A DNA stretch of 24,193 nucleotides from a virus (taxonomy: Duplodnaviria > Caudoviricetes), in the IMG/VR virus record IMGVR_UViG_3300033076_001517, positions 1-24,193 of that record. The stretch is one strand, 5' to 3'. The position numbers were made by a program, and so were the translations under genes. The notes beneath the pieces were generated by a model, which was not told where the DNA came from, ran no database searches, and saw only the letters and a list, made by a program, of their open reading frames with translations. Positions 3,159 to 7,747 of this stretch are shown in pieces; position 1 is the stretch's first letter; each line of letters starts with the position of its first letter.

Positions 3159-3665
3159 CTACTTCGTGCGAGACATTACCACCAGCGCGCGGCGCATGGC
3201 GGCGAGCAGGTACCCACGCGCGACGCCGATGCGAAGGTCAAGGCCCATGCGCCGCTTGTGCGCGAGGTAGGGCGGCGATAGCTCGTGAAGCTTCATATCC
3301 GCGCCGCTGTTTGTGAGCCGGTCAACGTACACCGCGCGGATCGCGTTGCCGCCGACCGTGAACGCGTTGTGGAGCCCGAGCTCTTTGCCCGCCGCGAGGT
3401 TGCTCGCCGTCTTGGCAATGATCGCGTCCGCGGCGGCCTTCTTCACGCGCGCCTGAACACGGAGAATCGGCCGCGCGGGTTGGTGGTTGTCGGGCACCCC
3501 GGCGTCGAACCAGAGCAGGTGCGTCGAGTCCTCGTCTGGCAGCGTGAGGCGCATGGTGTACGAGCGCCCGATCTCGTCCGCGATCTCACGCGCGCGCTTC
3601 GCGATGGCCTGGGCGGCCTCGCGTGCGAGCCTCGACGCGGTGCTTGCGACGGTAGGCGCGGGCAT
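3159..3665 (-). CDS. Tail completion / virion morphogenesis-like protein, 168 aa
   Basis: ATG 3665 coupled to the upstream TGA (TGATG). C-terminal LSPPYLAHKRRMG...IGVARGYL resembles the Mu gpG / P2 gpS-type motif. Neck position. Confidence 0.65.
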   Translation of the reverse strand: MPAPTVASTASRLAREAAQAIAKRAREIADEIGRSYTMRLTLPDEDSTHLLWFDAGVPDNHQPARPILRVQARVKKAAADAIIAKTASNLAAGKELGLHNAFTVGGNAIRAVYVDRLTNSGADMKLHELSPPYLAHKRRMGLDLRIGVARGYLLAAMRRALVVMSRTK

Positions 3666-4240
3666 CAGGGATCGTACGCGGTCGCGTTGTCCATCTGATA
3701 CCGCAGCGCGTAGACCGTCGTCGCGAGCATGCGCCCTCCTCCCATATCCTCGATCGTCGTGCCGCCCTCGCGCACGCACGCAAGCGGCACCGGGTCAAGC
3801 ACCGTCCCGCCTCGCAGGAGATCCGGATTCCCGAGCGCACGCTGTAGCCTTGCGCTGTCGTTCAAAGCGCGCTGCCGTGGCTGGTCAATCACCGTCGCCG
3901 CCGACTCGGTGCCCGAGAGCACCAGGAAGTCGGTGACGGCGTTGCCGTACGTGACGGCGTTGCAGATAGCGACTCGCGCCACGCGGTGCTGCGGGTTGTC
4001 AATCGGGTTGTTAATCGTCGGGTCGTCGGCGTCCGCAAGCCACTCGACGAACACGGCGCGGTCGAAGTCCACGCTCGGATACGTGGTGTCGCGCAGCGGT
4101 GCGTTCATACGCGCCTGACGGAAGCGCCCGACGGGTATTGACTTCGCCTGCGCGTCGGAGCCGAGCGAGCCGTTGGCTCCGCGGCCGTTGACCATGATGT
4201 CGTAGAGCCGCCCTTCGAGCGTCGCGAATGCACTCGTCAC
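3665..4240 (-). CDS. Putative neck / tail terminator protein, 191 aa
   Basis: Coupled on both sides, located in the neck cluster. Function inferred from synteny only. Confidence 0.6.
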   Translation of the reverse strand: MTSAFATLEGRLYDIMVNGRGANGSLGSDAQAKSIPVGRFRQARMNAPLRDTTYPSVDFDRAVFVEWLADADDPTINNPIDNPQHRVARVAICNAVTYGNAVTDFLVLSGTESAATVIDQPRQRALNDSARLQRALGNPDLLRGGTVLDPVPLACVREGGTTIEDMGGGRMLATTVYALRYQMDNATAYDP

Positions 4241-4715: not shown

Positions 4716-5327
4716 CTAGTACACCTCGAAGGACGTCGAGCCGCGTGAGAAGGCGCGCCCGGCGTTCAGCACGTACGAGATTCCGCACGCGCGTGCGAGC
4801 CTATCGCGTAGCTCCGCGCGCCGCGCGAGTAGCGCCTGGGCGATCGTCTGCTCGCCCGAGCCGCCGAACCATTGGACCTCATCGACGGCCCTGAGCCCGG
4901 CGCTCGCCGTGGCGTCCTGCTCCTGGTCGTCGAGCGACGCGAGATCGGAGAGCAGCCCGCGCACGATCGTCAGCGGTGACTCGACCTCCACCGGGTACGT
5001 GCCCGAGTGCAGGCGACGGCAGACGACAGAGATGCCGCCGCCGGTGAGGGCGCGGACGGTCACCACCTCGCGCGTGCCGTCCACGTCGAGCACCACACGC
5101 GACGACGCCGCGAGCCCGGTTAGGCTCGTGAGCACGAGCACCGCTGCGCCCGGCGCCGTGACGGCCGTCGACGACGTGGTGGGCGCGATCGTCGACGACA
5201 CGACGTGCTGCTGGATGATGTCGTAGATGGCGCGGATCGACACGTAGGGGATCGCCCCGATGTCGAGCACGTTATCCAGGACTTCGGCTTTGATGCGCGA
5301 AATCTCATCCTGGCTGAGTGTCGTCAC
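4716..5327 (-). CDS. Putative head-tail adaptor protein, 203 aa
   Basis: AGGAG 7 nt before a GTG that overlaps the endonuclease stop (GTGA). Helical termini around a beta insert. First neck gene after the capsid genes. Confidence 0.65.
   Translation of the reverse strand: MTTLSQDEISRIKAEVLDNVLDIGAIPYVSIRAIYDIIQQHVVSSTIAPTTSSTAVTAPGAAVLVLTSLTGLAASSRVVLDVDGTREVVTVRALTGGGISVVCRRLHSGTYPVEVESPLTIVRGLLSDLASLDDQEQDATASAGLRAVDEVQWFGGSGEQTIAQALLARRAELRDRLARACGISYVLNAGRAFSRGSTSFEVY
5283..5327 (-). repeat. Diverged 15-codon duplicate, copy at adaptor 5' end (MTTLSQDEISRIKAE)
   Basis: 12/15 aa and 30/45 nt identical to 6077-6121. Confidence 0.9.
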
Positions 5328-6121
5328 GGCTTGCTCCTAGCGATCTGCGCGGTGCCGTCCACCTCATTGATGATCGACGGCGTTACTGTATCAGCATGGC
5401 GTTTGCCGATGTGTGCGGCCGACATATTCGCACGGCTCTCGGCGCTATGAACCCGGCCCTTGTGAGCCGCCGATATCTTGGCCTTTGTCTCTGGCGAGCG
5501 CGGGCCGCGCGTGCGCCCCGCCGCAGCGGCCGACAGCTTCGTGCGCGTTGCTTCTGATACTGGCGGTTGTGGGCGACCGGAGTGTGCGGCTCCAATCTTC
5601 GCGCGTGTCTCTGGCGAGAGTTTCCGCCCGCAAGCCGACTCGCTCATTTTTGCGCGTGTCTCTGGCGTGACGATGCGCCCCACCATAGACGCTTGAAGAT
5701 TGGCCCGATGCTCAGGTGAGCGCGTGCGCCCCTTCAAAGCAGCGCTCTGTTTCGCGCGTGATTCGAGCGTTGGGCTGCGACCTCGCGTCGGAGCTGACAC
5801 GTCTTGTGCTTGGTTGAAGCATTGTCGACCGTAGAGCGCGGTGACCATCAGTTGTTCGAGCCCAAGACGCAGGCTGTAGTCGGGCTCTGCCTCCATCATC
5901 TCGAACACCAAATCGTCGACCCCATACTTTCGCGCGTGCGCTTGAAGGTGGGAGTTCGTGTGATGCCCGGTCCTAAGTCGGCTGCGGTGGTGCCGCCAGC
6001 GTAGGACGACGTTGACCGATGAGCCGACGTAGACCTTGCCGGTCAGTCGTGAGGTGATGGAGTACACCCCCGCAGACTCTGCCTTGATTCGGCCAATCTC
6101 GTCTTCGCTCAGCGTTGCCAT
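5324..6121 (-). CDS. Free-standing GIY-YIG homing endonuclease with NUMOD3 repeats, 265 aa
   Basis: GVYSI...KVYVGSS...RWRHH...H.N.HLQ...KYG...E...N catalytic domain, followed by about seven (S/T)PETRAK(I/M)S-type repeats. Confidence 0.93.
   Translation of the reverse strand: MATLSEDEIGRIKAESAGVYSITSRLTGKVYVGSSVNVVLRWRHHRSRLRTGHHTNSHLQAHARKYGVDDLVFEMMEAEPDYSLRLGLEQLMVTALYGRQCFNQAQDVSAPTRGRSPTLESRAKQSAALKGRTRSPEHRANLQASMVGRIVTPETRAKMSESACGRKLSPETRAKIGAAHSGRPQPPVSEATRTKLSAAAAGRTRGPRSPETKAKISAAHKGRVHSAESRANMSAAHIGKRHADTVTPSIINEVDGTAQIARSKP
6077..6121 (-). repeat. Diverged 15-codon duplicate, copy at endonuclease 5' end (MATLSEDEIGRIKAE)
   Basis: Partner of 5283-5327. Similarity ends two residues before the GVY motif. 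Confidence 0.9.
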
Positions 6122-6163
6122 GCGGTGTCCCTTCGATCAGAGCGGAGCGGAGGCGAGAGCGGC

Positions 6164-6197
6164 CGCACGCGCGAGAGTGTGAGCCCTCGCGCGTGCG
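6164..6197 (-). terminator. Strong intergenic hairpin (terminator/attenuator or mRNA stabiliser) after the capsid genes
   Basis: Perfect 12-bp stem CGCACGCGCGAG/CTCGCGCGTGCG, extendable by G-U and G-C pairs on the minus strand. No U-tract. Confidence 0.5.
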
Positions 6198-6206
6198 CCT
6201 AGTGGG

Positions 6207-6593
6207 CTACCAGATCTTGCCGCGCGGGATGTACCGCGAAGTGACCGTGGTGGTGTCACCGACGACGCTCGCGCCCGACAGCGTCGCGACGGCGCGAACC
6301 TGCTGGAACGAGTAGGCCGCCATGGGCACCGCAAGGGCGACGGTCCCGGAGGCGCTGAGCGTCACCGTGGCCACGTTCGAGATGTCCTTGATGGGCACCC
6401 AGGTGGTGCCATCGACGGAGCCCTCGGCGCCGAAGGTGGCGACGATGGAGCCCGTGACGATCGAGCACGCGCAGTCGAGGATCAGCGTACCGAGTTGATA
6501 CACGTCCGACTGGAGAGCGACGCCCGTGCGCTTCGTGCCGTTGGTGCTCGTGAGCACCGGCAGAGAGGGAGCGGCGATTCGTTGAAGAGCCAT
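6207..6593 (-). CDS. Small beta-sandwich virion protein (capsid decoration-like), 128 aa
   Basis: Directly after the capsid gene, GAGGA RBS, EGSVDGTTW and VRAVAT motifs, Thr/Val/Ser-rich. Confidence 0.65.
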   Translation of the reverse strand: MALQRIAAPSLPVLTSTNGTKRTGVALQSDVYQLGTLILDCACSIVTGSIVATFGAEGSVDGTTWVPIKDISNVATVTLSASGTVALAVPMAAYSFQQVRAVATLSGASVVGDTTTVTSRYIPRGKIW

Positions 6594-6613: not shown

Positions 6614-7747
6614 TCAGCAGGAGTGGACGTTGACCACGAAGCGGTTATCGAGCATGGCCTCGCCCTCGTAGGCGATCCAGATGACCTTCGCGGTTTCGCC
6701 ATAGTTGTCGTCGGCCGACGCGGCCGCGCGACACGGGCCGCTCGACACGCGGCCGAGAGCGCCCGGGCCGAACATGGCGCCGTGGTCGATCGGACACGAC
6801 GCGCCGACGGTGCTGCTGTCGATCGTCTGCGTGTTGCTCATGTAGACGTCGATGCCCGCGATCGAGCGCACGAGCGACTGAGAGAGCGGGTTGATCGGGT
6901 TGAGCGCCGGAGTGAAGGGCGCCTGCCGCACGAAGTCCGGATCTGTCTGGAGCTGGCGCACCTGACGCGGCGAGAGCACCGCGATGAACTGCCCGTTGGC
7001 GAACCTTTGGACGTTGTTGAGCGTCAGCTTCTCCTGCATCTGGAGCAGCGCCTGGAAGTCCATGGAGCGCTGGCCCGCGACGGTGCCCGCCGGGAAGGCG
7101 CCCGCGTCGGTGGTGAGCGCGCCGTTGGGATCACCCGGGAAGATGATCGTCGAGCCCGCGTCGAACAGCGAGCCGTAGACGCTGTCAACGAACTTTAGCC
7201 GATCGCGGTAGAGGTCGATGCCCACGATCGAGGCGATCGAGTGCACGCCACGCTCGGCGTCGAGGCGGTCGATGGCGCGCGGCGCGACGCGGCTGTTGAC
7301 CGAGTCGTAGGGCCCGGCGCGGCGAGCGATGGTGATGGACACCTGCTCCTGCGTGAGGTCCACCGGGACCACGCTGATGGACTGCGACGCGGCGATGGTG
7401 CGCGCGGCCGCGGTGTACCCGCCGCCGCTGAAAACAGGGCGGTTCATGCGGATCGTATGACCGGGCTTGCCCGGCGCGAGTTCGTCGGACACGACGATCG
7501 CTTCGGCGTAGGGCATTTGCCCGGCGATGATTGACTGCATCAGCTGGAACTGGAGCGCGGCGGGACCGACGTCGGGCGCGCTGCGCTCGGCGGTCAACCC
7601 CATGTCACCGACGCGGCGGAACTCGGCGTTCATGTCGGCGAGGTACACGAGCTGCGCGTAGAGGTACTGCGGCTCTGGCTGCCGCAGCATGACCGCACTG
7701 GTGCGATCATAAAATTCATTCGGGAGCGTGACGCGTGAAACGGACAT
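6614..7747 (-). CDS. Major capsid protein, 377 aa
   Basis: Size and position after the scaffold. GKPGHTIRM, FIAVLSPRQVRQLQTDPDF, IAGIDVYMSN and DDNYG...IW.AYEG.AML segments are typical of HK97-fold coat proteins. Confidence 0.88.
   Translation of the reverse strand: MSVSRVTLPNEFYDRTSAVMLRQPEPQYLYAQLVYLADMNAEFRRVGDMGLTAERSAPDVGPAALQFQLMQSIIAGQMPYAEAIVVSDELAPGKPGHTIRMNRPVFSGGGYTAAARTIAASQSISVVPVDLTQEQVSITIARRAGPYDSVNSRVAPRAIDRLDAERGVHSIASIVGIDLYRDRLKFVDSVYGSLFDAGSTIIFPGDPNGALTTDAGAFPAGTVAGQRSMDFQALLQMQEKLTLNNVQRFANGQFIAVLSPRQVRQLQTDPDFVRQAPFTPALNPINPLSQSLVRSIAGIDVYMSNTQTIDSSTVGASCPIDHGAMFGPGALGRVSSGPCRAAASADDNYGETAKVIWIAYEGEAMLDNRFVVNVHSC

Follow-up and report, generated by a model that had tools for sequence, protein, structure and literature searches.

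A GIY-YIG nuclease gene that has captured the start of a likely phage neck gene and supplies a diverged replacement

In a freshwater phage, a gene for a likely head-tail adaptor is interrupted after codon 15 by a GIY-YIG nuclease gene, which opens with the native start of the adaptor gene as its own first 15 codons and is followed by a second, diverged set of the same 15 codons that leaves the interrupted gene whole; close relatives carry the gene without the insert. The account that we consider reasonably probable is that this is a homing nuclease that lives within the adaptor gene, restores it with the diverged copy, and spreads by cutting uninterrupted starts. The window is the whole 24,193-nt contig that was analysed, in which terminase, capsid and helicase genes are present. 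The interrupted gene is referred to as gene 2, its captured start as copy 1 and the replacement start as copy 2; labels with L denote loci fetched around gene-2 relatives, those with P proteins and those with X sequencing runs. The features of the locus, in the direction of transcription, are as follows.

6614..7747 (-), major capsid protein gene (PHROG 1357, E 2e-5)
6207..6593 (-), 128-aa gene, an upstream neighbour conserved in position across the family
6164..6197 (-), strong native intergenic hairpin of 13-14 bp, from folds, aligned in the empty alleles too
6145..6164 (-), 5′ arm of a predicted 17-bp stem; its partner is codons 4-11, and the ribosome site and the ATG lie between the two arms
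6128..6134 (-), native ribosome-binding site GAAGGGA, now ahead of the nuclease, with the same site in the empty alleles
6077..6121 (-), copy 1, the host gene's native codons 1-15 as captured by the nuclease, identified by their match to empty alleles
6091..6110 (-), 3′ arm of the predicted stem, within the captured leader (nt 12-31), from folds
5324..6121 (-), fusion ORF (6121-5324) of 265 aa, made up of 15 host residues followed by a GIY-YIG domain (aa 17-82) and NUMOD3 repeats
5283..6076 (-), inserted element of 794 nt, comprising the body and tail of the nuclease, the second ribosome site and the replacement version of codons 1-15
5324..5398 (-), last 24 codons of the nuclease, which differ from the tails of its nearest relatives P0002 and P0131
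5334..5338 (-), second ribosome-binding site AGGAG, within the nuclease tail, 6 nt 5′ of the GTG
5327-5324 (-), GTGA overlap of the nuclease stop and the gene-2 start
5283..5327 (-), replacement start (copy 2), matching close empty alleles at 31-34/45 nt
4716..5327 (-), restored host gene (gene 2), 203 aa with a GTG start; the product, which contains an inserted beta domain, is a likely head-tail adaptor (neck) protein
5028..5048 (-), codons 94-100 of gene 2, a further diverged patch that goes with occupied alleles and is a rival target site

The initial annotation had reported twin starts that share 30/45 nucleotides and 12/15 amino acids with 7 synonymous differences, together with an AGGAG in the nuclease tail and a GTGA overlap, and each of these is present in the sequence. 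Against a six-frame translation of the window, the leader peptide matches copy 2 at 11/15 residues (with GTG read as V) and no other 15-mer at more than 7, and the second start is therefore not a chance resemblance. To place the two copies, 89 loci encoding gene-2 relatives were fetched, 81 of them with at least 150 nt of upstream DNA. The insert is absent from all nine loci that combine upstream DNA with at least 85% identity (seven of them distinct), and the blastn blocks of L001, L002, L108, L110 and L128 stop at window position 6077; across the 81 loci, a nuclease stands ahead of gene 2 in L004 only, which is 56% identical. The empty site that had been predicted from the window exists in nature, since L001 reads as the predicted junction with one synonymous difference.

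Copy 1 matches L128 at 44/45 nt and copy 2 at 31/45 (against L001, 41/45 and 34/45, respectively), which identifies copy 1 as the host's own start and copy 2 as the replacement. Over the leader and 90 nt of upstream DNA, L128 and the window agree at 133/135 nt, and past codon 15 gene 2 matches its close alleles at 37-44/45 nt per block through codons 16-60. Eight bases of copy 2 are unseen in the seven empty alleles, compared with one base of copy 1 and 0-3 in leave-one-out controls, and seven of these eight private bases fall within nt 12-30. Joined to codons 16-203, copy 2 gives an intact ORF of 203 aa. No donor of copy 2 was found among the 89 loci, where 34/45 is the closest match and distant families come up to 33/45. 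The natural empty alleles thus bear out the earlier proposals of an insertion after codon 15, an element of 794 nt, the capture of the host start and the provision of a replacement copy. The element has a GC content of 62%, compared with 69.5% for the window, and its 24-codon tail is probably an absorbed spacer; the tail has no match longer than 14 nt among the blastn matches listed. A scan for promoters and terminators returned nothing above chance.

It had also been noted at the outset that no intron or intein features flank the ORF, and this stands: the Rfam search returned no intron match, the ORF occupies all of the insert, and the frames differ. That the 794 nt form a self-splicing group I intron or an intein, with the second copy of the start being incidental, is accordingly a reading to which we give almost no weight. 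Some homologs are automatically named 'group I intron endonuclease', and there is one in-register U/G junction, at nt 46, where splicing would place Phe at residue 16, but the U at nt 46 is missing in variants with Thr or Ala at that residue. A group I intron was rejected on the absence of an Rfam match and on this lack of conservation in the only available register. An intein is excluded because 794 is not a multiple of 3, so that the frames differ, and a stop intervenes between them. Four RNA-labelled runs, available as contigs that may include DNA, contain no joint skipping the element, which agrees weakly with a lack of splicing, and metatranscriptome contig X18, in which DNA may be present, crosses the left junction unspliced. 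The contigs from these runs show neither strand nor level; X19 covered 2/30 bins and X20 is probably DNA.

The nuclease is assigned to its family by PF01541 (GIY-YIG; 29.3 bits against a cut-off of 22.6) and carries PF07460 (NUMOD3) in three stretches (E 6.5e-19). Residues 17-74 align to the catalytic domain of I-TevI (1mk0, E 1.1e-5), for which the reference residues are Y6, Y17, G19, R27, H40, E75 and N90, and the alignment places Y20, Y31, G33, R41 and H54 at equivalent positions. Outside this alignment, E89 and N103 are taken, from their spacing, to be the counterparts of E75 and N90. The nuclease belongs to a protein cluster of 10 members, all of 265 aa, all with the leader, and all within 23 residues of the window's protein; G18, Y20, Y31, G33, R41, H54, E89 and N103 are kept in every one of them. 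Residue 2 of the leader is Ala or Thr among these variants, the same choice that is seen in the empty alleles, and occupied alleles differ from one another at the 3′ end of gene 2, observations that together imply exchange of the flanks.

Single contigs that run across both junctions were recovered from X2 and X9 (two of four runs), which belong to two different studies. An assembly artefact was considered and rejected, as these spanning contigs and the 10 full-length, leader-bearing variants rule it out. Run X5 holds one nuclease contig and one contig in which the leader continues straight into gene 2. The leader is also specific to this cluster and is not a general N-terminus of GIY-YIG proteins, a candidate explanation that was discarded because the leader is missing from unrelated members of the family: when 134 nuclease N-termini were compared with gene-2 starts, the match was 9/9 residues for the 10 cluster members, 6/9 for P0131 and no more than 4/9 for the remaining 123. 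Locus and pattern scans for the DNA context of P0131, P0002 and other occupied alleles gave nothing close, and the count of independent start captures is a lower bound. P0131 is a relative of the window nuclease, and its 6/9 match lies in a leader of its own. Among P0271-P0278, four gene-2 proteins carry Ala at the nearly invariant R11 and E15, and two have a Val start; judging from sequence, the four Ala-bearing proteins may be the replacement copies for P0131.

Gene 2 lies 3′ of the capsid gene and the 128-aa gene across the family, and its protein cluster has 222 members. It has no sequence match in Pfam, PHROG or PDB, a Foldseek search of PDB gave no match at E 0.001, and BFVD matches were of low TM. 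An AlphaFold model built with 97 sequences (pLDDT 83.7) has a helix at residues 6-15, a beta insert at about residues 50-115 and long C-terminal helices. The VIA search matched residues 2-194 of this model to the neck protein of cyanophage A-1(L) (8keg_A; Z 8.6, rmsd 3.4, 104 aligned residues), the only match among the top VIA rows to span the whole chain, at a score that is modest for a helical part, and weak Atlas leads at 0.89-0.90 point to Mu gp36, DUF4054 and Phage_connect_1. Position, the 8keg_A match and the Atlas leads lend moderate support to the earlier identification as a neck gene, and we consider a head-tail adaptor likely; gene 2 would then presumably be essential. No longer fused form of gene 2 was present among 8000 candidates, which is weak evidence, and no GenBank phage matched gene 2 or the capsid protein, so far as cultured relatives are concerned. 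The only match to gene 2 in the genome collection is L169 (51%), in a contig of a Myxococcota MAG, a weak hint at Myxococcota as the host group.

The helix at residues 6-15 also bears on the suggestion, made at the outset, that the captured segment targets the nuclease to the virion, which could work by docking it on the portal or neck and so packaging it. This we regard as very improbable. The leader is indeed kept in 10/10 variants, but its conservation does not exceed that of the other residues (1/14 variable positions, compared with 32/250 elsewhere; Fisher p 1.0), most members of the nuclease family lack it, and the start site and RNA stem suffice to account for its retention.

Leaderless relatives of the nuclease are found directly before several genes of the same region: the capsid gene in L004 and L131, gene 2 in L004, the next genes in L003 and L004, and a tail-tube-like gene in L127 and L129. 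The capsid regions of L131 and L127 are 95% identical, and their capsid genes differ at 13 positions in codons 1-15 and at 0-4 in each later block; the tail-tube-like gene has 19 differences in its first block and 3-7 in later ones, and a control gene has none in its first block. Gene 2, which has no nuclease before it in either locus, differs at 11, 6 and 12 positions in its first three blocks, and divergence at the 5′ end is therefore not specific to present occupancy. In L004, where a nuclease stands at the start of gene 2, GC3 is 0.55 and 0.45 over the first 40 codons of gene 2 and 0.85-1.0 thereafter. A tree of 28 catalytic domains groups the window nuclease with P0002, P0131 and L003 (98/99) and leaves the nuclease at the gene-2 site of L004 outside this group, which suggests separate arrivals at the same gene-2 start.

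Two of these loci offer further observations. In L003, gene 2 is separated from the next gene by a short GIY-YIG gene of the same clade (3612-4060), which closes with codons that, together with the bases after them, resemble the native end of gene 2; gene 2 itself ends in differently spelled codons. From sequence comparison this is a possible 3′ capture at the same gene, a mirror case of the window. Within 5 kb of L004 (1-4780), the capsid gene, gene 2 and a 191-aa gene each have a related GIY-YIG gene immediately ahead of them, and two of these three nuclease genes have ATGA overlaps.

The native start also lies within a predicted RNA structure that the initial annotation had overlooked, as it had the patch at codons 94-100. 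Immediately after the hairpin at 6197-6164 comes the 5′ arm of the stem (6164-6145), whose predicted partner is nt 12-31 of the gene, in codons 4-11. This register is predicted in the window and in 7/7 empty alleles (z -1.5 to -3.8); across the eight sequences 99.3% of the cells pair, and one pair alternates between G-C and G-U. The eight sequences contain no two-sided change that would amount to covariation, and shuffles were uninformative. Pairing with the arm that equals that of copy 1 was obtained for 152/4804 control windows (about 3%), and the predicted duplex is -33.2 kcal/mol with copy 1 and -18.2 with copy 2. All seven of the private bases of copy 2 that lie outside its start codon fall on paired positions of the stem. 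On these predictions the stem is plausibly real, and in that event the nuclease has likely taken over a host RNA throttle along with the start. Hairpins that hide the ribosome site are a known control on T4 nucleases, according to the consulted sections of PMC2988022; should the stem be real, a selfish gene would here have taken over an existing control of host expression and not evolved its own. A stem at codons 4-11 would be a further reason for copy 2 to diverge there. The fold predicted for L127 (2893-3000), with z near 0, also pairs intergenic DNA, of a different sequence, with gene 2, at codons 10-14, a hint at a parallel throttle; 11 other distant regions gave no significant fold.

Under the homing reading, the nuclease would be translated from the native ribosome site, under the predicted stem, and gene 2 from its own AGGAG or by coupling at the GTGA, with no splicing. 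The target would span the junction of codons 15 and 16. In an occupied allele, the left junction would lack the right half of that target and the right junction would have an altered left half; repair of a cut empty allele from an occupied genome, with homology on both sides, would copy the 794 nt. The likely origin would be a free-standing nuclease just before a virion gene that carried the diverged start of that gene, the left side of which became joined inside the coding sequence of a recipient; its relatives are still free-standing. Homing is backed by the clean empty alleles, by the coexistence of both forms in X5, by the 10 intact variants and by the divergence of starts in the family pairs.

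A single past insertion that no longer homes, has been reshuffled by ordinary recombination, and left copy 2 to drift once it was free of the stem is an improbable alternative. It would explain why the seven non-start private bases of copy 2 all hit paired stem positions, and phage genes here are mosaic; it fits poorly with ten of ten variants being full length with intact catalytic residues, and with variable positions numbering 7/95 in residues 16-110 and 18/131 in residues 111-241.

The position of the cut is a separate question. The cut made by I-TevI lies at a distance of 23-25 nt from where it is inserted (PMC2988022, in the sections consulted). The private bases of copy 2 could reflect escape from cutting at a site like that of I-TevI, or else drift that followed release from pairing. 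Such a cut, if on the upstream side, would presumably fall at about nt 20-22 of gene 2. Among the points against a cut at the junction, the patch has more private bases (13 in nt 271-315) than copy 2, and release from RNA pairing also explains all seven private bases. The same insertion and homing could instead depend on a cut about 280 nt downstream, at or near codons 94-100, with the patch as the immunity allele and the captured start merely the place where the left junction fell; we hold this to be unlikely, though less so than a single past insertion. The patch accompanies the element in 5/5 readable occupied alleles, directly in the window and P0266 and indirectly (by the absence of diagnostic indel rows) in X2, X9 and X16, and it is absent from 7/7 known-empty loci and from 12/13 proteins with an empty-type start. 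Within the occupied contigs the patch is constant and codons 24 and 26 are not, and characterised free-standing T4 nucleases, as described in the same sections of PMC2988022, cut hundreds to thousands of bases from their own genes, which makes distant cutting the rule in T4. Against this, P0144 combines an empty-type start with the patch, hitch-hiking on a founding haplotype also accounts for linkage over 280 nt, P0266 is tied to the nuclease by its start and by a contig of the same length as that of P0121, and most of the divergence in the family pairs falls in codons 1-20. It is these pairs, and where the private bases lie, that favour the junction over the patch. A CNNNG cut motif, read by eye, is too frequent in GC-rich DNA to place a site.

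A wider reading is that codons 4-11 are triply locked, as cut site, first adaptor helix and throttle arm, that the nuclease, by its insertion just past the stem, inherited a throttle on translation after the capsid gene and hands the neck gene a suitably low dose by coupling at the GTGA, and that a single nuclease clade travels between starts and ends of virion genes in this phage group. This is speculative, and we would sooner doubt it than accept it. If true, empty alleles could hardly mutate to resistance, and the free-standing, start-capturing and end-capturing states of the clade would illustrate how a splicing-free invasion of coding DNA arises.

With regard to known systems, the closest likeness is to the mobile endonuclease ORFs (mORFs) of fungal mitochondria, which form gene hybrids in Allomyces atp6 and in Glomus atp6, atp9, cox2 and nad3 (extracts of PMC3630166) and replace C-termini (extracts of PMC3630166 and PMC4019555). 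In these extracts, as in the window, an intron-free endonuclease ORF sits in a conserved gene that is kept whole by a diverged duplicate of one end, and the atp9 case is likewise GIY-YIG; the present case differs in its phage host, in that it is the N-terminus that is replaced, and in that the nuclease is driven from the native start. In Torulaspora and Lachancea, WHO elements substitute the 3′ end of FBA1, and their cleavage depends on the allele (PMC7282813, in part). They share with the window element homing without splicing and a duplicated, diverged fragment that serves as second homology arm and as allele-specific resistance. As the consulted part of that source describes them, they differ in encoding a LAGLIDADG intein-zinc-finger protein, in targeting the FBA1 3′ end, in independent transcription, in forming clusters and in that cleavage has been shown for WHO. 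As the 5′ end and not the 3′ end is replaced in the window, the element works like mORFs and WHO elements and is not classed as one of them.

Among phage systems, the Seg nucleases of T4 (SegA, E, F and G) are also GIY-YIG, intron-free and located beside an essential target gene, and translational coupling and ribosome-site-hiding hairpins are common among them (consulted sections of PMC2988022). Unlike the window nuclease, which lies inside a coding start and duplicates it, Seg genes are intergenic there and their products cut far away; moreover, the hairpin in the window is a host structure that is also present in the empty alleles. A Seg-type intergenic position is thus not what is found for the window nuclease, inserted after codon 15, and is the position of its relatives in L004, L131, L127 and L003. 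Aeh1 nrdA/mobE and T4 gene 60/mobA resemble the window in having a nuclease inserted in a needed coding gene without splicing, but as presented in those sections of PMC2988022 the host protein is made in two pieces, and here it is restored whole. I-TevI (1mk0, 1ln0) is alike in its catalytic domain, which aligns over residues 17-74, and in NUMOD3 motifs, and unlike in being intron-encoded, the window nuclease having no intron.

The initial annotation had named no description of the 5′ form in a phage neck gene. In phage this agrees with what was found, but the 5′ form itself is in print for a fungal gene: a survey mentions duplication of the N-terminus of atp9 along with free GIY genes (PMC7487136, in part). 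The T4 review treats nucleases as intergenic or gene-splitting, and no replaced start was found in its consulted sections (PMC2988022), or in those of PMC10448857, PMC12724721 and PMC12386605. No description of a start-capture form in phage was found in the literature covered, mostly open-access main texts, which does not establish its absence from print. The form is thus apparently undescribed in phage, and its principle is known from fungi and yeast. Phage homing nucleases have been described as intron-borne, intein-borne, intergenic and gene-splitting, and start capture is another route into needed coding DNA. With base-matched natural empty alleles from the same sample, the WHO-type model becomes directly testable in phage. 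There is also a caution for annotation, namely that such nucleases open with the peptide of a virion protein, and that the first codons of the host gene have a separate history.

Several minor features of the window were noted in passing. The 128-aa gene differs from L001 and L002 mostly at codons 12-19 (window 6593-6500, minus strand), and some early differences are present in the capsid gene (7747-7680, minus strand); on sequence comparison, both are possible traces of past nuclease visits. The large terminase subunit (794 aa; 14266-11882, minus strand) contains a LAGLIDADG-containing insert, beginning at about residue 68 and closing with a His-Asn near residue 423, that is probably an intein; its apparent first residue is Ala and not Cys or Ser. 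The opposite (plus) strand carries two genes at the end of the contig (21037-23689), one DUF932-like and one for an AAA ATPase.
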